DNA from: Escherichia phage AnnaReinhart_Bas75
DNA: 43,870 nucleotides
Direction: 5' to 3' (one strand)
Sequence record: PQ850596.1
Shown: piece after piece, positions 1,823 to 41,398 of the stretch
How the letters are laid out: the number at the start of each line of letters is the position of its first letter
How positions within the stretch are numbered: the stretch's first letter is position 1
Notes under the pieces: model-generated
Told to the model about the DNA's origin: nothing
Databases searched by the model: none
Seen by the model: the letters and a program-made list of their open reading frames with translations, nothing else
Program-made: the position numbers and the translations under genes

Positions 1823-3304
1823 ATGTTAACTATGAACGGTCAGAATCAGGGTGTTAAGACAAAACACCGGGAATGGCTGCATCACTTCGATAAATGGCAG
1901 AAGGTACGCCACGCTCTTGAAGGCGACCTTATCCGCTATCTGCGCAACGTCGGGAAGAACGAGCCTGACCAGACCTACGCAGCACAGCGACAGGAAGAAT
2001 ACGAGAACGGCGCTATCTGCTACAATTTCACCAAACGCACGCTGGCGGGGATGACGGGGTCAGTGATGCGCAAAGACCCTGAGCAGATTATCCCGCCTGA
2101 ACTTGAGTACCTGTTGCACAACGCTGACGGTTCAGGTGTCGGGCTGTGGCAGCACGCGCAGGATACGCTGATGGAGATTAACTCGATAGGCCGTGGCGGG
2201 TTGCTGGTGGACGCCCCGGAAACAGCCGCAGCAACGGCGGCAGAGCAGAACGCGGGATTATTAAACCCGGTAATCGCATTCTATACCGCGGAGAACATTA
2301 TCAACTGGAGACTCACCCGCATCGGTTCAGTGAACCGCGTGACGATGGTTGTATTGCGTGAGGCATGGGAATACTCGGAACCAGGCGCTGAGTTTGAAAC
2401 AAAATTCGGCGAGCAATACCGCGTCCTTGACCTGATTGACGGTCGCTACCGCCAGCGCATCTACCGCTTCGATGCCGAAGGTGGCGCACAGGATGAAGTA
2501 ATCGAAATCTTCCCGGAACTCGGCGAACAGTTGCGCGGTAAAATCCCGTTCACGTTCATTGGCGCAAGCAACAACGACGCCACTATAGACGATGCGCCTT
2601 TACTGCCGTTAGCTGAGCTAAATATCGGTCATTTCCGCAACAGCGCAGACAATGAGGAGTCCAGCTTCGTTGTAGGCCAGCCTACTCTGTTCATCGCCCC
2701 AGGTGAGAACATGAGCATGGAGCAATGGAAAGAAGCCAACCCTCACGGTGTGCGCATGGGGTCCCGTTCAGGTCATAACATTGGTTACGGCGGCAATGCG
2801 TTTCTGGTTCAGGCAGGAGAGAACAACCTCGCCAAACAGAACATGCTGGATAAAGAGAATCAGGCCATCCAGATTGGCGCGCAGCTTATCACCCCGACGC
2901 AGCAAATCACCGCGGAATCGGCCCGCCTGCAACGCGGCGCCGACACGTCAGTCATGGCAACAATAGCACGTAATGTAAGCATGGCGTATACCGATGCGTT
3001 GCGCTGGGTTGCGGGTATGCTTGGGCTTAGTGAAGATACTGAGATTGAGTTCAAGCTGAATATGGAATTCTTCCTGCAACCTATGACAGCTCAGGACCGC
3101 GCTCAGTGGATGGCGGATATTAACGCTGGCCTGCTACCCGCCACCGCTTACTATGCTGCGTTGCGCAAGGCAGGTGTGACTGACTGGACAGATGAGGACA
3201 TTCAGAACGCTATTGAAGACGCACCTCTGCCGTTGGGTTCTGTTGCTCAGGTAGCGGGAGAGATTCCGCAGTCGGCGCAGCAACAGGACACCACTCAGCA
3301 GTAA
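1823..3304 (+). CDS. portal protein
   Basis: 493-aa ORF immediately after terL; acidic C-terminus; followed by a GNRA-loop hairpin. Assignment by size and gene order. Confidence 0.7.
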   Translation: MLTMNGQNQGVKTKHREWLHHFDKWQKVRHALEGDLIRYLRNVGKNEPDQTYAAQRQEEYENGAICYNFTKRTLAGMTGSVMRKDPEQIIPPELEYLLHNADGSGVGLWQHAQDTLMEINSIGRGGLLVDAPETAAATAAEQNAGLLNPVIAFYTAENIINWRLTRIGSVNRVTMVVLREAWEYSEPGAEFETKFGEQYRVLDLIDGRYRQRIYRFDAEGGAQDEVIEIFPELGEQLRGKIPFTFIGASNNDATIDDAPLLPLAELNIGHFRNSADNEESSFVVGQPTLFIAPGENMSMEQWKEANPHGVRMGSRSGHNIGYGGNAFLVQAGENNLAKQNMLDKENQAIQIGAQLITPTQQITAESARLQRGADTSVMATIARNVSMAYTDALRWVAGMLGLSEDTEIEFKLNMEFFLQPMTAQDRAQWMADINAGLLPATAYYAALRKAGVTDWTDEDIQNAIEDAPLPLGSVAQVAGEIPQSAQQQDTTQQ

Positions 3305-3340: not shown

Positions 3341-4417
3341 ATGCTATTAACTTTAGCGCCACAGGGTTTATCTATGAGCTTACTTACATCCCTAATCAGC
3401 CATCAGATATGGCTGCAACGCACCGCATCCGGTGAGGTGAAAGACCTCACGCCGTTCATTCAGGAGATAAGGGATGAAATCAAACGGCAGGTGCTGTTAT
3501 TCGGTGACGACGGTCGCAGCACTGCGCGACTGAATAAACTGTTACGCGACCTGGAAGAAGCACTAACCGGTATTACGGGTGACTGGCAAACAAAGCTAAC
3601 AGACGACCTTAAGGAACTGGCGGCGTACGAGGCTGAGTGGAACGTAAAGACACTGACCGCCAACGTAGACGCGGAATTTGTTACGCCTACCGCTGAGCAG
3701 GTATGGGCCGCTGCCGAGTTTCAACCATTATCATTGAGCGACAAGCCCGTTGATTTCACCAAGCTGATGTCTGGATGGGGCGAAACGGAAGTAGCACGTC
3801 TTGTAACTGGAGTTAAGATGGGCTTTGTGCAAGGTCAAACCACACGGCAGATTGTTAAGAATGTTGTTGGCGCTGGTGGACTAGCCGACATCTCAGAACG
3901 TAACGCGACTACGGTAATCCGCACCGCGCTGTCCCACGTATCCAACGAGGCCCGTAACGAGACGTACCGCCAGAACGACGACATCATCGAGAAGTACGAG
4001 TGGGTGTCAACGCTTGACAGCCGCACCAGTACGATTTGCAGGGTCAGAGACGGGATGACGTGGGAAATTGGTAAGGGGCCGATGCCCCCAGCCCATCCGA
4101 ACTGCCGGTCGTGCACGGCTCCGGTAATCAGTTCCGAGTTCGACTTCCTCGATAAAGGCGCAAAACGCGCGGCTAAAGGCGCGGAAGGTGGCACTCAGGT
4201 AAGCGCAGACACCACTTACTACGAGTTCCTTAAACAACAACCGGCGTGGTTTCAGGACCAGGCGCTCGGCCCGGTGCGAGGTAAGATTTTCCGTAACAGC
4301 GGTATATCGCCGGAAGAGTTTCGCGTAATATCTGTAGATGGTTTCGGGAATCCGCTCACGCTTAAGCAGATGGCGGAACTCGATAAACGTGTTGCTGATT
4401 ATCTGAAAGGGGAATAA
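3341..4417 (+). CDS. head morphogenesis / minor capsid protein (Mu gpF / SPP1 gp7-like)
   Basis: 358-aa ORF following portal, the conserved position of F-like head morphogenesis proteins; alternative start at ATG 3374. Family assignment from position and general sequence character only. Confidence 0.55.
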   Translation: MLLTLAPQGLSMSLLTSLISHQIWLQRTASGEVKDLTPFIQEIRDEIKRQVLLFGDDGRSTARLNKLLRDLEEALTGITGDWQTKLTDDLKELAAYEAEWNVKTLTANVDAEFVTPTAEQVWAAAEFQPLSLSDKPVDFTKLMSGWGETEVARLVTGVKMGFVQGQTTRQIVKNVVGAGGLADISERNATTVIRTALSHVSNEARNETYRQNDDIIEKYEWVSTLDSRTSTICRVRDGMTWEIGKGPMPPAHPNCRSCTAPVISSEFDFLDKGAKRAAKGAEGGTQVSADTTYYEFLKQQPAWFQDQALGPVRGKIFRNSGISPEEFRVISVDGFGNPLTLKQMAELDKRVADYLKGE

Positions 4418-4878
4418 TGATGGGCTTTTTCAAAGTAACTGACGTACCGTCTCGTCGCGTAGTCCAGTACGCCCGCGTGTCTGGCTCTGGCGAGAACGTG
4501 GTATTTATTGAGGACGAAAGTGTACTCGGTACACCGGTAGATGATATGCCGTTTGCAGATAAAACCGGTATTGCGTTGCCCGCCGCCGGTATGCTTTATG
4601 AAATTCCGTATCTGGCGGACGCTGGCGACGTGTATTTCTCTGTGCAACCAAAAGACGCTGAACTGGCCGACGGCAGCGCGACTATCACTGTCGAAGTTAA
4701 AGCAGGTGAAGCGCCGTATGCACTGACCTGGTACAAAGACGGTAAGGAAGTTGTCAACGCCCCGGAAGAGGCACTTTCCTTGACGGTTAACGCAGTGGGT
4801 GAATACTTCGTTAAAGTTACCGATGCTGATGGTGTAGAGGCTGTCAGTAAAGCTGCGAAGGTCACTAAGCCCGAATGA
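4417..4878 (+). CDS. Ig-like domain protein (possible capsid decoration protein)
   Basis: 153 aa; C-terminal segment TITVEVKAGEAPYALTWYKDGKEV...GEYFVKVTD resembles Ig-like (I-set/Big-type) domains; paralogous to 8190..8540. Confidence 0.5.
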   Translation: MMGFFKVTDVPSRRVVQYARVSGSGENVVFIEDESVLGTPVDDMPFADKTGIALPAAGMLYEIPYLADAGDVYFSVQPKDAELADGSATITVEVKAGEAPYALTWYKDGKEVVNAPEEALSLTVNAVGEYFVKVTDADGVEAVSKAAKVTKPE

Positions 4879-4881
4879 TAA

Positions 4882-4905
4882 AAGGCCCCATTAAGGGGCC
4901 TTAGT
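4882..4905. terminator. bidirectional rho-independent terminator AAGGCCCC-atta-GGGGCCTT
   Basis: 8-bp GC-rich stem flanked by A-run upstream and T-run downstream; lies between convergent genes 4417..4878 (+) and 4908..5111 (-). Confidence 0.7.
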
Positions 4906-4907
4906 TT

Positions 4908-5111
4908 TCAACGGAATCTTGTGTTTAAATCCTGCTCGTGGACGACCCTCAGAACAGTGTCATAATCCCCGTATCTTCCAGGTTCAAATATATCTAATGC
5001 CTTGTAAGCAGACATTGCGTCAGGGAAAACCTGCAGAACCTTTTTAACCCGGCACAAGTCACCGTCGAACTCTTCATCGAACTCTTGAACTACTTCGCAA
5101 ATTGCATACAT
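4908..5111 (-). CDS. hypothetical small acidic protein (67 aa), single-gene minus-strand insert
   Basis: ORF with AGGAGG RBS 8 nt before ATG, own early-type promoter (5139..5167) and shared terminator; opposite orientation to flanking structural genes. Confidence 0.6.
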   Translation of the reverse strand: MYAICEVVQEFDEEFDGDLCRVKKVLQVFPDAMSAYKALDIFEPGRYGDYDTVLRVVHEQDLNTRFR

Positions 5112-5138
5112 TTTTCACCTCCTGTTTAAGTTAACTGA

Positions 5139-5167
5139 ATAGTACCCTATTATATTGGGGTGTGCAA
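5139..5167 (-). promoter_or_regulatory. sigma70-like promoter TTGCAC-N17-TACTAT containing palindrome AATAG-N4-CTATT
   Basis: Read on minus strand: TTGCAC accccaatataataggg TACTAT, then AGGAGG RBS and ATG of 4908..5111. Near-identical to sites at 14262, 37025 and 38441. Confidence 0.6.
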
Positions 5168-5442
5168 ACTATTTATTTACGTATTCCAGTTATTCCACCG
5201 AATTGTAAATGTTGGAATAAACTATTCGAATAGTTGACTTTTCACTAAAAATATGATAAGCTCCACCTGAGCTTGTGAAATATGAACAAGCGACCGCGGC
5301 GCGGGCAGGTAACGGAGCGGGACGTAAGTCCTGAGTGTAGTTACGCTGACGCGTTCGGAAGGGCCATACTCTATTGCTTGTGTAAAAAGTAACAGGTTTA
5401 CTGAGATTACGCCGTTTCTATGTTTAAATGATAAGGACTAGC

Positions 5443-5468
5443 GCCCTGCTTTAAGGCAGGGCTTTACT
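5443..5468 (+). terminator. hairpin GCCCTGC-N-GCAGGGC followed by TTTACTT
   Basis: 7-bp stem with T-rich 3' flank, immediately upstream of the Rz RBS. Confidence 0.4.
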
Positions 5469-5486
5469 TATCGAGAAAGGAGAAAC

Positions 5487-5873
5487 ATGAATCTTAAAGC
5501 AACTGTCGTAGCAGGAGCATGTTTCATCATCCTGGTTTACGCACACGGCATCTACCAGTATCGCAGCGGATGGAACGAAGGCCGGGCTAATCTCGTTTCG
5601 CAGCAACAGCAGAAAGCACAGGCTGAGTTAGCGAAGAAAACACAACGGCAGCAGCAGGATGAATCGAAGGCCGCCGCCGCTGACAACGAAGGCAAGACGA
5701 AATCAGAGGTGATTACCCGTGAAGTCGTTAAGTACATTAAAACGCCTGGTCGCAGTGTGTGCGCTTTTGACCCTGAGCGCGTGCAGCTCAAGTCCCGCGC
5801 CGTCGCAAACGCCAACTCCATCCCCGGATACGACGATGATGCAGCCGCCGTGCAAACTGGCACCGCCAAGTAG
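5487..5873 (+). CDS. Rz: i-spanin (Rz-like inner membrane spanin)
   Basis: 128 aa; N-terminal transmembrane segment (VVAGACFIILVYAHGIY), then Gln/Ala/Lys-rich predicted coiled coil; contains an embedded out-of-frame lipoprotein ORF, the hallmark Rz/Rz1 arrangement. Confidence 0.6.
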   Translation: MNLKATVVAGACFIILVYAHGIYQYRSGWNEGRANLVSQQQQKAQAELAKKTQRQQQDESKAAAADNEGKTKSEVITREVVKYIKTPGRSVCAFDPERVQLKSRAVANANSIPGYDDDAAAVQTGTAK

Positions 5874-5982
5874 CGACGCCGACGAGGATTTGGCTATCGA
5901 CGTTCAGAACGCTGAATGTGTACGGCAACTGAGGCTGAAAGTGTTTATGTTGCAGGATTACGTGAGGAATATTCTGGAATAG
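5719..5982 (+). CDS. Rz1: o-spanin (Rz1-like outer membrane lipoprotein), overlapping the 3' end of Rz in another frame
   Basis: GTG start with GAGGTGA RBS; signal peptide ending in lipobox LSAC; Pro-rich mature region (SPAPSQTPTPSP...PPC), typical of Rz1. Confidence 0.55.
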   Translation: MKSLSTLKRLVAVCALLTLSACSSSPAPSQTPTPSPDTTMMQPPCKLAPPSSDADEDLAIDVQNAECVRQLRLKVFMLQDYVRNILE

Positions 5983-7877: not shown

Positions 7878-8177
7878 ATGGCTAAGACCGGAAAAGGCTT
7901 GCCTCGCAGCCTTCAGAATGTCGACTTCGGCGACTTTGACATCCCAGTAACGCCGGCTACTACCGGCGTAGTTGGTGGGGTTAAAAAGTCAGCTACTGTA
8001 GCTGCCCCCGCGGCCATTACCGCTGCCGCCGGGTCGCAGTCCGCTGCGGACCCGACTAAGCCCGAGTTCGATGCCCTTGTAGCCGAGTACAACAAACTTC
8101 GAACTGATGTAACCGCGCTGCGCACTACCGTAGCAAATCTGTTGACTGCGCTTAAAAATGCAGGAACTGTAAGCTAA
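7878..8177 (+). CDS. hypothetical structural protein (99 aa, Ala-rich)
   Basis: AAGAGG RBS before ATG; located between capsid and Ig-like genes. Confidence 0.55.
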   Translation: MAKTGKGLPRSLQNVDFGDFDIPVTPATTGVVGGVKKSATVAAPAAITAAAGSQSAADPTKPEFDALVAEYNKLRTDVTALRTTVANLLTALKNAGTVS

Positions 8178-8189
8178 AGGAGCTTAAAA

Positions 8190-8540
8190 ATGGTTGATGT
8201 AATCAAACGTCGTATTACTGGTGTTTCTGATGATTCTCCTGCCGATGGTCAGGTTGAAATCGATATGGCGAATATCTCGCCCGCATCTTTTTCTACCGCA
8301 CTTGCCGCTACCACTACCAAGTCTACGGGGCAGACGATGACTCTTACCGTAGCCGTAACTGGCGGTCTGGCCCCGTACACATACCAGTGGTACAAAGATA
8401 ACAACGCTATCCCAGGCGCTACCGCCGCCACCTACGAGAAAACTTCGCTCGCTACTACCGATTCCGGTACGTATAAAGTGGTTGTCCACGATGTATATGG
8501 TAATATTATCTCCAGCAGCACCGTAGCAACTGTATCTTAA
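8190..8540 (+). CDS. Ig-like domain protein (possible capsid decoration protein)
   Basis: 116 aa; motif MTLTVAVTGGLAPYTYQWYKDNNAI...GTYKVVVHD matches Ig-like domain signature and parallels 4417..4878. Confidence 0.55.
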   Translation: MVDVIKRRITGVSDDSPADGQVEIDMANISPASFSTALAATTTKSTGQTMTLTVAVTGGLAPYTYQWYKDNNAIPGATAATYEKTSLATTDSGTYKVVVHDVYGNIISSSTVATVS

Positions 8541-8545
8541 TACCG

Positions 8546-8561
8546 CGGCCCTTCGGGGCCG
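8546..8561 (+). other. stable hairpin CGGCCC-ttcg-GGGCCG (no T-tract)
   Basis: Perfect 6-bp GC stem with UUCG tetraloop directly after the stop of 8190..8540. Confidence 0.5.
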
Positions 8562-8576
8562 TAATAAGGAAAGGTC

Positions 8577-8756
8577 ATGGCAGATAATTATGTAATCCGC
8601 GAAAAGTACACCCACGTTGATGTTGTTGACGGTCAGGTTATGCCCGTTCGCGGTGTTGTAGAAGCGGATGAACTGGTAGCGGTTCAACCGGACAACGAAG
8701 AAGCGCACAACAACGGCGGTGGCACTAAGCGTCGCCGCCGTAAGTCAGAGGAATAA
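8577..8756 (+). CDS. hypothetical protein (59 aa; below the ORF-track size cutoff)
   Basis: ATG preceded by AAGGAAAGG; clean ORF ending just before the next gene; basic C-terminus GGGTKRRRRK. Confidence 0.45.
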   Translation: MADNYVIREKYTHVDVVDGQVMPVRGVVEADELVAVQPDNEEAHNNGGGTKRRRRKSEE

Positions 8757-8759
8757 TTT

Positions 8760-9272
8760 ATGCCGCTAATCGTGGAAACTGGGGCAATCGTCCCGAATGC
8801 CGACAGTTACATTAGTCTGGCTGACGCCCGCGCGTTAGCGGCTAATTATGGCCTTGAGCTACCGGAAGACGATACCGCCGCGGAGGTGGCCTTGCGTAAC
8901 GGCGCCACTTATGTCGGGCTTGCGGAACCGCAGATGTGCGGTCGCCGGGTATCCGCCGAACAGTCTCTGGCGTACCCACGTACGGGAACAACACTGAACG
9001 GCTTCACTGTAGCGGATAATGATATTCCGTCGCAGTTAATCCGGGCGCAGGTAATCGCCGCTGTTACATATGGCGCAGGAACTGATGTTCGGGCTAACTC
9101 TGATGGGCGTTCCGTGCAGACTGAGCGCGTAGAAGGCGCGGTGACCGTGACATACTTCAACAACGGCAACAGTGGCGCTACGACCGCGATTACCGCTGCT
9201 GACGACGCTTTACGCCCGTTATTGTGTGGCGGTCTTAACAATGGTTTCTCGTTTAACGTGTACCGGGGTTAA
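8760..9272 (+). CDS. putative head-tail connector/adaptor protein
   Basis: 170 aa, in the head-completion position; N-terminus (IVPNADSYISLADARALA) resembles gp6-like adaptor proteins. Assignment is tentative. Confidence 0.45.
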   Translation: MPLIVETGAIVPNADSYISLADARALAANYGLELPEDDTAAEVALRNGATYVGLAEPQMCGRRVSAEQSLAYPRTGTTLNGFTVADNDIPSQLIRAQVIAAVTYGAGTDVRANSDGRSVQTERVEGAVTVTYFNNGNSGATTAITAADDALRPLLCGGLNNGFSFNVYRG

Positions 9273-12483: not shown

Positions 12484-12714
12484 TCACTCATCAATATTAC
12501 TTCGATACTCCCGTAACTTCTCCAGACTTTCAATTGCTTCTGCTAAGTCGGTTCCGGTGTCCTTATGCCCGCGAAGACCCATGCACAATAACTTCTTCAA
12601 TGCGTGCTGTAGTGCGGGGTCACGGATGTCGAAGGCACGGAGAACATCGTAAACGTCTACGGTCATAGTGCTGCCGTGAGTGTTTGTCATTGTTCGGTTG
12701 TATTTTGAAGTCAT
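12484..12714 (-). CDS. hypothetical protein (76 aa), last gene of minus-strand insert
   Basis: Start overlaps stop of phosphoesterase gene; no recognisable motif. Confidence 0.5.
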   Translation of the reverse strand: MTSKYNRTMTNTHGSTMTVDVYDVLRAFDIRDPALQHALKKLLCMGLRGHKDTGTDLAEAIESLEKLREYRSNIDE

Positions 12715-13841
12715 CCCAGCATCTCCGGTGAAATAGTTAAACGTGCGACCTCGCCATATTCGGCGCTATAAGTAATTACATTTGCACTACGGCCTGACAT
12801 CCACCCGCCGCGGGAGGCATAGGCGTCTTTAGCCGCTAAGGTGCGGTGTTGCTCAACAATCATGTTACGGCTTTCTACAATCTTCTGGTGGTGCAGGTGG
12901 CCTACGTGGGCGTAGCTATAGACACTCTCACCGAACGCTTTGCGGAATTTGGCAATCATAACCGGTTCGATAGCATCGAATCGCGCCTTATGCCCGTGGT
13001 GAAAGAACAACGTCGTTTTTCCGTGTTGCACCATCTTGTAAACATCCGGCGACGTATCGACAATCACTCGGCTGTCGTTCGAATATAAAACTGTGAACAT
13101 TTCAGCCAGCCATACAGAGCCTACAGGGTCATGGTTCCCCTGTACGATAAGCAAGCGAACATTTTTATGTTTAACCAGTGCCATATCTACAACACGGCGT
13201 ACCATACGAATCATGTAGCGGACGAGTTTCTGGTAGCGAGTGTCTGCGTCCAACACGTGACGCGACTCAGGTGTAACGGCATCCAGACTATCGAAGTGCG
13301 CGAAATCACCCAGCAGGTTAATAACTCCTGTTCCTGCATCCGGTGCTTTCTGAAACGCCGCGTCGAACCAACGAGAGAACAGGTCTTCCGCAATCTTTAT
13401 ATCCCAGTCGTCGCCGCTCTCGTCGGCCCAGGCAAGCATACCGAGATGGAAATCAGATACCGTGTAAAGATTGAGTAGCTTGTCGTCGCGTTTGGCTCGA
13501 GTCGCTTTAGCCGGCGCAACTGGCGTAATCTCTGACTTCATGCCTTCAATCACGGCTTTCATCAACTCGACCTGACGTTCAGCGTCGGTGTCTGTCTTAA
13601 CCCATTGCAACTTAGTATTGCCGAACTCGTCTACCAGAGACGACGTCCCTTTAATCTTGTAGCCGTCTGGGACAAGGTGGCTAACGTCACGCCCGTGGCC
13701 TACACCTTTCTTAGCCAGCTTCGCTTTACGGATACGAATAACTCGGTCTGAGATGCCGTATTTACGGGCGATGTCTACATTCTTCATCCCGGCGTTCAAT
13801 TCTTCCTGTAACTGTTCGTCGGTTATTTTCTTCTGGGCCAT
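12711..13841 (-). CDS. HTH domain fused to calcineurin-like metallophosphoesterase
   Basis: 376 aa; N-terminal HTH-like segment (KNVDIARKYGISDRVIRIRKAKL); C-terminal phosphoesterase motifs in order: SDFHLG (D-x-H), GDFAHFD (GD-x-x-D), GNHD, then His-rich HHGH and GHLHH. Confidence 0.7.
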   Translation of the reverse strand: MAQKKITDEQLQEELNAGMKNVDIARKYGISDRVIRIRKAKLAKKGVGHGRDVSHLVPDGYKIKGTSSLVDEFGNTKLQWVKTDTDAERQVELMKAVIEGMKSEITPVAPAKATRAKRDDKLLNLYTVSDFHLGMLAWADESGDDWDIKIAEDLFSRWFDAAFQKAPDAGTGVINLLGDFAHFDSLDAVTPESRHVLDADTRYQKLVRYMIRMVRRVVDMALVKHKNVRLLIVQGNHDPVGSVWLAEMFTVLYSNDSRVIVDTSPDVYKMVQHGKTTLFFHHGHKARFDAIEPVMIAKFRKAFGESVYSYAHVGHLHHQKIVESRNMIVEQHRTLAAKDAYASRGGWMSGRSANVITYSAEYGEVARLTISPEMLG

Positions 13842-13906
13842 GCTTACTTCCTCGTGTTTAGGATTTGTCCTATTTAACCACAGTGGATTCCTTTAAATAA
13901 AGGCAA

Positions 13907-14233
13907 CTATTTACTTTCTGCGCCTATCGCCCACCCTGTCATTACCATTTGCAGACGGGTGGCTGTCAGTAGGCTATAGAAAGCATCTCCGTTTTTCTCT
14001 ACCGAACGTATCACTGTGTAGGTTACGGCCTGCGGGGGTAGGCCCGATTTACCAACCTCCACGGCGGCCTCACACTCGCGAACTGTAGAGTCCTTGAACG
14101 CCTTTACAATAGTAGGGTCGGCTTTATCAAGCACACCAGAAGTCATAAGAACAGATTCACTAAATACCTGTTCGCACGGGGCTCCAAAAGTAGCAAAAGA
14201 CATAAAACCCAGAGCTAGTACTAATTTACGCAT
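13907..14233 (-). CDS. secreted/periplasmic small protein (108 aa) with N-terminal signal peptide
   Basis: MRKLVLALGFMSFATFGA signal-peptide-like N-terminus; GAGGA RBS; first gene downstream of early-type promoter 14262..14290. Confidence 0.55.
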   Translation of the reverse strand: MRKLVLALGFMSFATFGAPCEQVFSESVLMTSGVLDKADPTIVKAFKDSTVRECEAAVEVGKSGLPPQAVTYTVIRSVEKNGDAFYSLLTATRLQMVMTGWAIGAESK

Positions 14234-14261
14234 AATTATTTCCTCAGTAAGTTACATGTGA

Positions 14262-14290
14262 ATAGTACCCTATTATATTGGGGTGTGCAA
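14262..14290 (-). promoter_or_regulatory. sigma70-like promoter TTGCAC-N17-TACTAT with AATAG-N4-CTATT palindrome
   Basis: Identical 29-bp core to 5139..5167; drives minus-strand cassette 14233..12484. Confidence 0.6.
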
Positions 14291-33457: not shown

Positions 33458-33471
33458 AATATGGTACTATT
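33458..33471 (+). promoter_or_regulatory. second palindromic box (AATAT-ggta-CTATT) in divergent control region before the XRE gene
   Basis: Imperfect copy of the AATAG-N4-CTATT box 44 bp from the first; overlaps TACTAT that may be the -10 of the plus-strand promoter. Confidence 0.4.
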
Positions 33472-33501: not shown

Positions 33502-33717
33502 ATGCAACCATCTGAACTAGGCATCCGTGTAGAACAACGCCGCAAAGAACTCGGCATCTCCCAGCGCCGTCTGGCGGTCCTGGCTGGCGTTTCCCAGGGC
33601 GCGATTAACCAGCTTGCGCTCGGGGTAACTCAGGACGTCCGGCCGGCGACGCTGTTCAAGCTGGCGGAAGTGCTACAAGTAGACGCCAAGTGGCTGGCGT
33701 TAGGTGAAGGGGCTTAA
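33502..33717 (+). CDS. XRE-family (Cro/CI-type) HTH transcriptional regulator
   Basis: 71 aa; classic HTH_3 signature LGISQRRLAVLAGVSQGAINQLALG; AAGGAG RBS; only plus-strand gene inside the minus-strand replication module. Confidence 0.8.
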   Translation: MQPSELGIRVEQRRKELGISQRRLAVLAGVSQGAINQLALGVTQDVRPATLFKLAEVLQVDAKWLALGEGA

Positions 33718-37024: not shown

Positions 37025-37053
37025 TTGCACACCCCAATATAATAGGATACTAT
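37025..37053 (+). promoter_or_regulatory. sigma70-like promoter TTGCAC-N17-TACTAT with AATAG-N4-CTATT palindrome
   Basis: Near-identical to 5139 and 14262 copies; followed by CGAAACGAGA leader, AGAGGAG RBS and ATG 37088. Confidence 0.6.
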
Positions 37054-38440: not shown

Positions 38441-38469
38441 TTGCACACTAAGATAGAATAGGCTACTAT
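38441..38469 (+). promoter_or_regulatory. sigma70-like promoter TTGCAC-N17-TACTAT with AATAG-N4-CTATT palindrome
   Basis: TTGCAC actaagatagaataggc TACTAT; followed by ACAAACGAGAGGAG leader and ATG 38501. Confidence 0.6.
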
Positions 38470-40005: not shown

Positions 40006-40286
40006 TGTCTCTTGCAACTGACATCCTGAAACGAAGCGGCCTTGCGCCGCTGTCACCGAAAGTTAAGACGCGAGCACGTAACGCAACTTACAAGGAACTG
40101 GCAGAACGGCGTAAAGCTATCCGCGCCTGTGGATTCCAGAACGGGAAGGCCGTTAACCTCGGTGAGTTTAAAACACAGGAACGCGCGGCAATCGCTAATC
40201 GGTTATTTAATTACTGGAAATCGCTGGGATACGAGGATATTCCGACGAAACCACAGAGACGACAGTACATCTGGAGACACAAATAA
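40005..40286 (+). CDS. hypothetical protein (93 aa)
   Basis: ATG overlaps previous stop; GAGGGGGTGGAG RBS. Confidence 0.5.
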   Translation: MSLATDILKRSGLAPLSPKVKTRARNATYKELAERRKAIRACGFQNGKAVNLGEFKTQERAAIANRLFNYWKSLGYEDIPTKPQRRQYIWRHK

Positions 40287-40361
40287 ACCGTTATTAAGAT
40301 AATTCCTACCCGTGGTATCCTCCAGTTACTGCATACTTAATACGCACCTGGAGGATTCATC

Positions 40362-40670
40362 TTGGATAAATTTACTGAAACAGTGACTGGGTGGCTTCTG
40401 GCAGCCGCACTAGCTGGTGGGGTAATCGGACTACGACAACATAAGTCCGCTATTTCCGGCCCTATCGACGGCTTCTGCTTTATTGCAACTGGCTTCACTT
40501 GCGCCGTATTTGGCGCACCTCTCGCAGCTCAATGGTTTGGAATCACGGGCGACCGTGAAATCGCAGGCCTGGGCTTCATTATCGCTATTCTCTGGATGCC
40601 TATCTATTCCCGTCTGTCCGGTATCGTCGCCGGAGAATACATCGCACGTCGAGGAGGCCCGGATGAATGA
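40362..40670 (+). CDS. holin (three predicted transmembrane segments)
   Basis: 102 aa; three hydrophobic stretches and charged C-terminus; CTGGAGGA RBS; immediately upstream of endolysin. Confidence 0.6.
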   Translation: MDKFTETVTGWLLAAALAGGVIGLRQHKSAISGPIDGFCFIATGFTCAVFGAPLAAQWFGITGDREIAGLGFIIAILWMPIYSRLSGIVAGEYIARRGGPDE

Positions 40671-40935
40671 GTTATTCTGGTTCTGCGGTATGCTGGCAAT
40701 CGGAGGCACATCGCTGTTTAATGTGTATCATCCCAGCGTTGACGACGGGCTATTTGGCCGGGTGCTCTATATCCTGACTGCTATTGTCTGCGCCGCAGGA
40801 TGTATCCACCTGTTACAGGGCAGCATGTCTCCGACGCTGCCTGAGACATTAATCACATTAGTTGCGCTGCGCCAGATTCGTCAGGCGTGGCTGTCATACG
40901 GAGGACATAAGCGTGTCTCGAAATATTTCAGATAA
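40663..40935 (+). CDS. second lysis-associated membrane protein (two TMDs; holin or antiholin candidate)
   Basis: 90 aa from ATG 40663 (GGAGG RBS); two hydrophobic segments; overlaps both neighbours. Confidence 0.45.
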   Translation: MNELFWFCGMLAIGGTSLFNVYHPSVDDGLFGRVLYILTAIVCAAGCIHLLQGSMSPTLPETLITLVALRQIRQAWLSYGGHKRVSKYFR

Positions 40936-41398
40936 TGGATTGCATTTCACCGCTGCGTTCGAGGGATTCCGCGGAACTGCATACCGCGCTACGCCGAACG
41001 AGAAGTACCTGACTATCGGGTACGGGCACTATGGGCCGGACGTAACCCCGGGTAAGACCATCACACCGGGGCAAGGCCTCCTGTTACTGAATCGTGATAT
41101 GGCTAAGGCCGTAGCTGCGGTTGACGCAGCAGCACACCATTCATTGACACAGGCACAGTTCGATGCAGTGTGCGACCTGGTATACAACGCAGGTGCTGGT
41201 GTGATTGCAGCTGCTACCGGCACAGGAAAGGCGCTGCGTTCTGGTGACATCGCGACACTGCGGGCTAAACTGGCGCTGTTTATCAACCAGAACGGCAAAC
41301 CGTTACTTGGTCTGCGCCGCCGTACTGCCGGGCGTCTTGCACTGTTTGACGGCAAGCCGTGGCAGGAGGCGGAGGCCATTGGGAGGGCTGTTAAATGA
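40913..41398 (+). CDS. endolysin, phage lysozyme (GH24 / T4-lysozyme-like)
   Basis: 161 aa from GTG 40913 (GGAGGA RBS); N-terminal catalytic region FEGFRGTAYRATPNEKYLTIGYGH resembles the E...D...T lysozyme core. Confidence 0.75.
   Translation: MSRNISDNGLHFTAAFEGFRGTAYRATPNEKYLTIGYGHYGPDVTPGKTITPGQGLLLLNRDMAKAVAAVDAAAHHSLTQAQFDAVCDLVYNAGAGVIAAATGTGKALRSGDIATLRAKLALFINQNGKPLLGLRRRTAGRLALFDGKPWQEAEAIGRAVK

Follow-up and report, generated by a model that had tools for sequence, protein, structure and literature searches.

A single small gene lies on the minus strand between plus-strand head genes in the genome of Escherichia phage AnnaReinhart_Bas75 (PQ850596.1), and its position raises the question of what such a gene is, how it came to be there, and what its product might do. 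The whole stretch analysed, 43,870 nucleotides (nt), is called the window below. The source phage is a Kagunavirus (Guernseyvirinae), a siphophage of Escherichia coli with 99.5% identity to the BASEL phage Bas76. An initial annotation, made from the sequence without database searches, had read the gene as an accessory (moron) gene with its own expression signals. We compared the locus with 39 related loci from IMG/VR, which were reached via the adjacent Hoc-like protein, and with named GenBank phages. The gene is very probably a one-gene accessory cassette in a hotspot between the Hoc-like and Rz genes. The best explanation overall, which we regard as fairly probable, is a moron cassette in an expression-socket hotspot, which would be co-regulated with the pre-late genes and whose cargo would be a binder of a host protein.

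The features of the cassette are as follows; RBS, UTR, and aa stand for ribosome binding site, untranslated region, and amino acids, respectively.

4880-4902, between the converging Hoc-like (plus) and 67-aa (minus) genes: shared hairpin terminator AAAAGGCCCC-ATTAA-GGGGCCTT
4900-5182, minus strand: insertion/deletion module of 283 bp (promoter, 5'UTR, RBS, coding sequence, and the module's terminator arm)
4908-5111, minus strand: coding sequence, read from ATG, of a 67-aa acidic protein (MYAICEVVQEFDEEFDGDL...NTRFR) from a small uncharacterised phage family
5118-5123, minus strand: RBS AGGAGG, 6 nt 5' of the ATG, as read from the sequence; its position is constant across differing cargo
5124-5138, minus strand: short conserved 5'UTR (TCAGTTAACTTAAAC), common to most occupied loci with unrelated cargo
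5138-5151, no strand: 14-bp palindrome AATAG-N4-CTATT over the -10 hexamer; candidate operator
5139-5167, minus strand: class A promoter, with -35 TTGCAC (5162-5167), a 17-nt spacer, and -10 TACTAT (5139-5144)

The borders of the module were determined by aligning the window with nine relatives, six of which have an empty slot. In the empty loci, the sequence is GGGGC-TTTTTA-(about 12 nt)-ATTCCAGTTATTCC, of which about 18 nt are replaced by 283 nt in the window; the distance from the Hoc-like stop codon to the Rz start codon is about 346 nt when the slot is empty and 612 nt in the window. The module is missing in 9 of the 40 loci, which have neither a minus-strand open reading frame (ORF) nor the promoter motif, and the other loci are longer. 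The empty allele was also found in the cultured isolates K1ind1 and UTI-CM001; therefore, the 67-aa gene is neither structural nor essential. The comparison across relatives thus bore out the accessory (moron) reading of the initial annotation.

When the slot is occupied, the terminator stem, the RBS, the 5'UTR, and the promoter with about 13 nt upstream of it are conserved, and the coding sequence between them is replaced. The same signals surround three unrelated cargo genes in named phages, and the 40 loci include, besides the empty alleles, at least 11 cargo families (57-246 aa) that are unrelated to one another. The cargo is listed below.

10 loci, the commonest alternative: 173-aa protein with weak similarity to a beta-clamp domain (PHROG 'processivity factor', E=3e-9; Pfam DNA_pol3_beta_2, E=0.008)
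4 loci: 67-aa protein
Other loci: N6/N4 DNA methyltransferase of 242-246 aa (Pfam E=1.8e-29)
Other loci: protein of 141/179 aa, the N-terminus of which matches a PHROG labelled endonuclease VII
Other loci: protein of 70-75 aa with a hydrophobic N-terminus
Other loci: several small proteins of unknown function

As the coding sequence is exchanged between conserved signals, the promoter is not private to the 67-aa gene and belongs to a reusable socket. The claim that the gene has its own promoter and terminator needs refining: the predicted signals are present at the sequence level and absent from the empty alleles, and the same signals are reused for at least 11 unrelated coding sequences. The DNA methyltransferase among the alternative cargo is a hint of a counter-defence flavour of the slot.

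The terminator also differs between the two kinds of allele. The stem is extended (AAGGCCCC/GGGGCCTT) in occupied loci; in empty loci, the hairpin (GCCCC-GAAA-GGGGC-TTTTT) is shorter and one-way. In the window, the hairpin (4882-4902) has folding energies of -16.2 and -16.5 kcal/mol on the two strands. The terminator scan called it on the minus strand and did not call it on the plus strand, where the T-run is merely AGTTTTC. Accordingly, the hairpin is shared, as had been described, but its bidirectional character rests on hairpin symmetry, since the scan scored a terminator on the minus strand only.

The ORF at 4908-5111 on the minus strand is a genuine protein-coding gene. This is evident because the ratio of nonsynonymous to synonymous divergence (dN/dS) is 0.23 relative to the 84%-identical copy in phage SHAK7858, because 59 aligned homologues, down to 31% identity, retain the length and the conserved residues, and because the AlphaFold2 model has a mean predicted local distance difference test score (pLDDT) of 96.4. 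The counterpart in Bas76 is annotated as a hypothetical protein (Bas76_0006). As first described, the protein is acidic and encoded antisense to the head genes (isoelectric point 4.50, net charge -6.4, 14 D+E versus 8 K+R), and its AGGAGG RBS lies where it had been placed. The G+C content (GC) of the gene is 44%, versus 51% for the genome. The model (predicted template modelling score 0.80) is a compact alpha/beta fold: residues 2-12 and 17-29 form a long beta-hairpin, helices span 32-39 and 44-47, and residues 53-58 make up the third strand. The invariant or near-invariant residues are C5, E6, D16, V22, L26, Q27, F29, A35, F42, R55, and the C-terminal F-R. The protein has no enzyme motif, no transmembrane segment, and no signal peptide, and no paralogue of the gene was found in the window.

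The family is small. Clustered at 90% identity, the members found by profile searches form 73 groups; HMMER, run exhaustively against 1.84 billion representative proteins, recovered just 35 representatives at 50% identity, most of them of 61-71 aa. Almost every member of the family is a stand-alone protein of 61-75 aa; the one longer relative (P0076), of 130 aa, is fused to phrog_8779, a further small ORF of unknown function. The carriers found were contigs of phage size (40-65 kb) or short fragments only.

The gene has a history independent of its flanks. For the window and Bas73, synonymous divergence (dS) amounts to 0.05 in the 67-aa gene but 0.63 in the Hoc-like gene beside it; for the window and SHAK7858, the order is reversed (0.40 and 0.24, respectively). 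The gene is present in only 32 phage records, 24 of them from Kagunavirus or Salmonella phages, and the flanking backbone is present in about 300-330 Guernseyvirinae records. Exchange of the cargo would most plausibly take place by homologous recombination in the conserved flanks during co-infection.

Within Guernseyvirinae, the family occupies three positions. The first is the slot between the Hoc-like and Rz genes, antisense, in Kagunaviruses and in a more distant relative (L050). The second is the slot between the portal and MuF genes, again antisense, in the Jerseyvirus VSt10, where the gene has a near-identical promoter (TTGCTTAACCAAATATAATAGGGTACTAT) and the same terminator. The third, in sp9, L049, and L059, is between the DNA polymerase A and helicase genes, where the gene is co-directional with its neighbours. 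In the Klebsiella Jedunavirus Geezett and its relative L054, the gene is antisense between portal and MuF, and these copies are preceded by good promoters (TTGACG-17-TAGAGT or TATAGT). In the Cornellvirus Shemara and in unrelated Klebsiella phages of about 60 kb, members of the family are found within arrays of small early-type genes. Thus, among late genes the gene is inverted and has its own non-late promoter, and among replication or early genes it rides the operon. From this pattern, we infer that the gene is expressed before the late genes; the contexts of the homologues would be the best argument available for such timing.

The initial annotation had also assigned the cassette promoter to the same class as promoters in the right arm of the genome. 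The assignment is correct, because the 29-mer recurs 5' of co-oriented RBSs and start codons, with two of the copies at the small-gene cluster of the right arm. The promoters and the related elements outside the cassette are as follows; HTH stands for helix-turn-helix.

14262-14290, minus strand: class A promoter, an identical 29-mer, heading a second minus-strand island
37025-37053, plus strand: class A promoter with 1 mismatch, heading the right-arm small-gene cluster
38441-38469, plus strand: class A promoter, diverged, inside the right-arm small-gene cluster
5138, 14261, 27300, 30865, 33414, 37041, and 38457: exact copies of the palindrome, with an imperfect copy at 33458
33502-33717, plus strand: gene for a 71-aa HTH regulator of the XRE/Cro type (Pfam HTH_3, E=1.2e-12; NCBIfam DicA-like repressor)

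Allowing one mismatch, the 29-mer occurs at three sites in the genome, versus 0.00 expected by chance. An alignment of the four class A copies is conserved from 1 base 5' of the -35 hexamer (CTTGCAC...) to 3 bases past the -10 hexamer (...TACTATTCA), and all four lie about 20-30 nt 5' of a co-oriented RBS and start codon. Transcription of the cassette is predicted to start near 5132 on the minus strand. Across 31 occupied loci, the -10 TACTAT is found in 29, the -35 TTGC[A/G]N likewise in 29, and the palindrome is identical in 25. In the Kagunavirus fBC-Eco01, the same promoter motif was detected 7 times by PHIRE and was ascribed to a phage RNA polymerase (PMC9825357). We rejected the reading as a phage RNA polymerase promoter: no gene for such a polymerase is annotated in Bas76, and the spacing between -35 and -10 is sigma-70-like. 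Because the Bas76 annotation is without a phage RNA polymerase, we read the motifs as promoters for host RNA polymerase (RNAP).

The second minus-strand island (12484-14233), the promoter of which (14262-14290) is identical to that of the cassette, lies within the tail-gene region. It encodes three proteins: that of 108 aa matches phrog_14165, of unknown function; that of 376 aa is metallophosphatase-like and is annotated 'DNA repair exonuclease' in Bas76; and that of 76 aa resembles the C-terminal part of longer PHROG families. The island (12484-14290, minus strand) is probably another accessory island with the same expression signals.

The palindrome has 7 exact copies in the window, versus 0.06 expected, and all of them are in promoter-like surroundings, six belonging to one of the promoter-like sites given here; the promoter core (ATAATAGGGTACTATTCA) occurs 7 times with up to 3 mismatches. 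At the four class A sites, it overlaps the -10 of TTGCAC-17-TACTAT. At the three class B sites (27300, 30865, and 33414, all on the minus strand), it lies in the spacer of TTGACA-17-TATAGT, which fits the sigma-70 consensus, and these promoters face the replication genes. The palindrome is probably the operator of a phage-encoded HTH regulator, at the cassette promoter as elsewhere. The 71-aa HTH gene, annotated as 'transcriptional regulator' in Bas76, is the sole plus-strand gene within the replication cluster and is flanked by an exact copy (33414) and the imperfect copy (33458) of the palindrome. Because of this location and these flanking copies, we propose the 71-aa protein as a putative repressor of the whole set, and the operator at the cassette promoter (AATAGGGTACTATT) would be one of its binding targets. 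The arrangement looks like a Cro-type switch over all the pre-late promoters.

On the other side of the cassette promoter, two plus-strand elements were observed.

5168-5225, plus strand: inverted and direct repeats TTATTCCA/TGGAATAA (e.g. TTATTCCACC-N-TTGGAATAA), just 5' of the plus-strand promoter
5225-5470, plus strand: TG-extended promoter TTGACT-17-TAAGCT, followed by about 210 nt of near-invariant non-coding sequence and an intrinsic terminator (5443-5462)

The element at 5225-5470, directly 5' of the genes for Rz/Rz1, scaffold, and capsid, occurs in 40 of 40 related loci, including those with an empty slot. RNAalifold predicted 76 pairs in it, 6 of them with compensatory double changes. 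In Bas76, an ORF of 36 aa is annotated at this site (5282-5392); it carries a frameshift in several relatives, and Rfam gave no match for the element. Its layout recalls PR'-6S RNA-tR' of lambda or a put-like antitermination leader for the late operon. The repeats at 5168-5225 are also found in the distant L050 (about 3870-4000 and 4230-4270), where the cassette promoter is a different one, and may serve the late promoter as a site at which a regulator binds.

With regard to function, the 67-aa protein had no match in Pfam, NCBIfam, or PADLOC, nor in PDB by family profile, and in PHROGs it gave one weak match (phrog_27256, function unknown, E=4e-4). Foldseek found nothing in PDB with the AlphaFold2 model, and in BFVD only uncharacterised small phage proteins of the same fold. 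No partner gene conserved across the genomic contexts was found. The initial annotation had stated that nothing in the sequence identifies a target, and the sequence, profile, and fold comparisons, none of which gave a function, agree with this. In two of the Klebsiella phages of about 60 kb, the genes adjoining the family member are annotated 'RNA ligase' (L008, 2024-2485; L053, 2433-2846). These neighbours score 18-19 bits against Pfam Acb1, a phosphodiesterase that counteracts the cyclic-oligonucleotide-based antiphage signalling system (CBASS); this is below the cut-off of 27. In the literature, nothing usable was found on transcription in Jerseyvirus/Guernseyvirinae or in CM001.

For the explanation given at the outset, we propose the following mechanism. 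The hotspot would function as an expression socket, in which four signals stay in place: a fixed promoter for host RNAP, the short 5'UTR, the RBS AGGAGG, and the GC-rich hairpin that the converging Hoc-like gene uses as well. Unrelated coding sequences are exchanged between the conserved flanks, the cargo here being the 67-aa protein. The promoter is one of a set of at least seven palindrome-bearing sites, with the palindrome across or beside the -10, the others of which would drive the replication genes and the small genes of the right arm. Because the promoter belongs to this set, the cassette is probably switched on alongside the pre-late genes by host sigma-70 RNAP, and it would probably be shut down later by the 71-aa XRE-type HTH repressor (33502-33717). 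The protein would most likely act stoichiometrically, by binding and neutralising an enterobacterial host protein. The target could be a defence component or a factor of DNA metabolism, and whether the phage benefits would depend on the host strain. We put forward the role as a stoichiometric inhibitor of a host defence or DNA-metabolism protein only tentatively.

Several points weigh against this explanation. The match of the cassette promoter to the sigma-70 consensus is weak (3/6 in the -35 and 4/6 in the -10, 7/12 in all), and a generic promoter scan did not call it. The promoter could require an activator, which would make the gene middle rather than early. The BASEL paper reports that its Kagunavirus isolates have a high sensitivity to the restriction systems that were tested and a sensitivity to Old that varies. 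Six of these phages (Bas70-74 and Bas76) carry the 67-aa gene, which argues against a broad role in anti-restriction. Silas et al. did not have the family in their accessory-gene screen (10.1101/2023.04.06.535777). The RNA-seq paper on the Kagunavirus K1B4 and its supplements give no per-gene timing for the slot, and the sampling spans several infection cycles. Finally, the similarity of the neighbours to Acb1, which may point to a neighbourhood of anti-defence genes, was unconfirmed against solved structures and is a hint only.

Of the other explanations, the one that survives best, though we consider it unlikely, is that the 67-aa protein assists the replication or recombination of phage DNA as an accessory factor and has no part in immune evasion, the head slot serving only to give it early expression. 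It could be a small adaptor of the phage polymerase or helicase, or of host SSB, clamp, or RecBCD. Such a role would fit the co-directional homologue between DNA polymerase A and helicase in three other Guernseyvirinae lineages, the weak beta-clamp similarity of the commonest alternative cargo (173 aa), and the palindrome that the cassette promoter and the replication-gene promoters have in common. The gene is dispensable, however, as viable relatives exist without it or a paralogue; moreover, no partner gene is conserved across the contexts, and the protein has no similarity to known replication proteins.

We regard as improbable a cassette for competition between phages, by superinfection exclusion or by interference with co-infecting phages. 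Comparable hotspots do carry exclusion genes, and the alternative cargo of 70-75 aa has a hydrophobic segment at its N-terminus, as small membrane exclusion proteins typically do. The 67-aa protein itself, in contrast, is soluble and acidic, with neither a signal peptide nor a membrane segment, and it has no PADLOC match.

The product could instead be the minus-strand transcript, which might run on past the hairpin and be antisense to the late mRNAs of the Hoc-like, MuF, or portal genes, or the ORF could be a decaying remnant. The promoter points toward the late head genes, the plus-strand side of the terminator is weak, and the same promoter is retained with every cargo. Both possibilities are essentially excluded by the dN/dS of about 0.2, by the conservation of length and residues among 59 homologues (identity as low as 31%), and by the pLDDT of 96 for the predicted fold. 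In addition, a strong hairpin lies immediately 3' of the stop codon, and the family is also found co-directional inside operons, where an antisense role is impossible.

A role as a head-assembly or structural component, conservation in which the initial annotation had named as a result that would refute its reading, and which is suggested by the position alone, with the Hoc-like decoration gene on one side and the scaffold and capsid genes on the other, is effectively refuted, since the gene is on the opposite strand with a promoter of a non-late class, is absent from viable isolates and from most relatives with the same head genes, and has homologues elsewhere in replication or early modules.

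The genes around the cassette are as follows.

1823-3304, plus strand: portal gene
3341-4417, plus strand: Mu-F-like head morphogenesis gene
4417-4878, plus strand: gene for a Hoc-type decoration protein, Ig-like
5487-5982, plus strand: Rz/Rz1 spanin genes, with the scaffold and then the major capsid genes beyond

The order is thus the Hoc-like gene (plus), the 67-aa ORF (minus), 375 nt of non-coding sequence, Rz/Rz1, scaffold, and capsid. The 1.7 kb spanning the 67-aa gene shows 99.5-99.6% identity to Escherichia phages DUEC01 and VerenaMeyer_Bas76 and matches 330 phage records, nearly all of them Guernseyvirinae (Kagunavirus, Jerseyvirus) of Escherichia or Salmonella. Rfam gave no match in or around the region of the 67-aa gene, and no tRNAs were found.

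Some further observations were made in this neighbourhood. The holin and endolysin genes (40268-41304 in Bas76; about 40.3-41.4 kb in the window) are about 35 kb apart from the Rz/Rz1 genes of the head module (5487-5982); thus, the lysis cassette is split. Between the major capsid and head-tail adaptor genes, the window (about 7880-8760) is about 319 bp longer than Bas76 (7880-8440). The ORFs there are of 99, 116, and 59 aa in the window, versus a 113-aa Hoc-like gene and a 59-aa gene in Bas76, which suggests that a second Ig-like decoration gene has undergone an indel or rearrangement. The GenBank taxonomy of SHAK7858 (L063, OR594183.1, vB_EcoM_SHAK7858) is Autographiviridae/Kayfunavirus. Its sequence and gene order in this region are of the Kagunavirus type (93% identity over 1.7 kb); thus, the record is probably mis-assigned.

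Accessory-gene hotspots are the source of most new counter-defence and host-takeover proteins, and the present one is unusually clean, with a single gene, exact borders, constant expression signals, at least 11 alternative cargos, and an empty allele. The phages that have the slot include the BASEL reference phages (Bas70-76) and UTI-CM001, the latter of which is used for synthetic biology. The slot therefore yields a short, testable list of candidate effectors and, for Kagunavirus engineering, a natural site of insertion whose promoter and terminator are defined. A wider reading, which we hold to be less likely than not, is that the 67-aa proteins are a new family of enterobacterial-phage inhibitors of host defence or DNA metabolism and that the slot is an integrase-free, repressor-controlled socket with exchange at ORF boundaries across Guernseyvirinae; if this is true, the cargo list of the slot would be a ready catalogue of co-regulated counter-defence candidates. 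No concept is changed by these results, and the general phenomenon is already well described.

Among known systems, the locus is close to the phage accessory regions described by Silas et al. (10.1101/2023.04.06.535777), which likewise have variable, non-essential content between conserved core genes of enterobacterial phages that are close relatives. As in those regions, a DNA methyltransferase is found among the cargo, together with many small proteins to which no function is assigned, and diverse unrelated genes are found at one position (at least 11 cargo families in 40 loci). Unlike those clusters, the slot holds one cargo gene, and exchange at the RBS and the terminator keeps the expression signals constant. 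The promoter would belong to an early-class regulon, in that its motif is common to promoters of pre-late genes (the 29-mer at 14262 and 37025; the palindrome, 7 copies versus 0.06 expected). The resident promoter, which would express interchangeable unrelated coding sequences, recalls integron cassettes, but the resemblance is functional only: no integrase is annotated in Bas76, no attC/attI-like sites were seen, the cargo is single, and the borders of exchange are the RBS and the terminator hairpin; thus, the slot is not an integron. The 67-aa protein is similar to small acidic phage inhibitors (AcrIF9, AcrIC8, T7 Gp5.9, and Ocr) in its size, acidity, compact fold, and patchy distribution and, presumably, in its early-type expression. 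It also gave a match below significance to the ClpS adaptor fold, over two thirds of the protein at 18% identity and with no support from Foldseek, which is a lead only.

Classical morons are found in temperate phages and are expressed from the prophage. The present cassette differs in that it is carried by a virulent siphophage, and in that its promoter is of a phage-wide, operator-bearing class and is reused for many coding sequences. It resembles the lambdoid morons (Juhala, Hendrix; late regions of HK97 and HK022) in being a single gene with a predicted promoter and terminator and a foreign composition and history. In the sense of Hendrix, the genes that flank a moron are adjacent in relatives without the insert, as are the Hoc-like and Rz genes, about 346 nt apart, in 9 of the 40 loci and in K1ind1 and UTI-CM001. 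Horizontal acquisition is indicated by the GC of 44% versus 51%, the discordant dS values, and the three positions in Guernseyvirinae, and the promoter and terminator are present by sequence and absent from the empty alleles. The kind of element is well known; the locus is a clear but ordinary accessory-gene hotspot.

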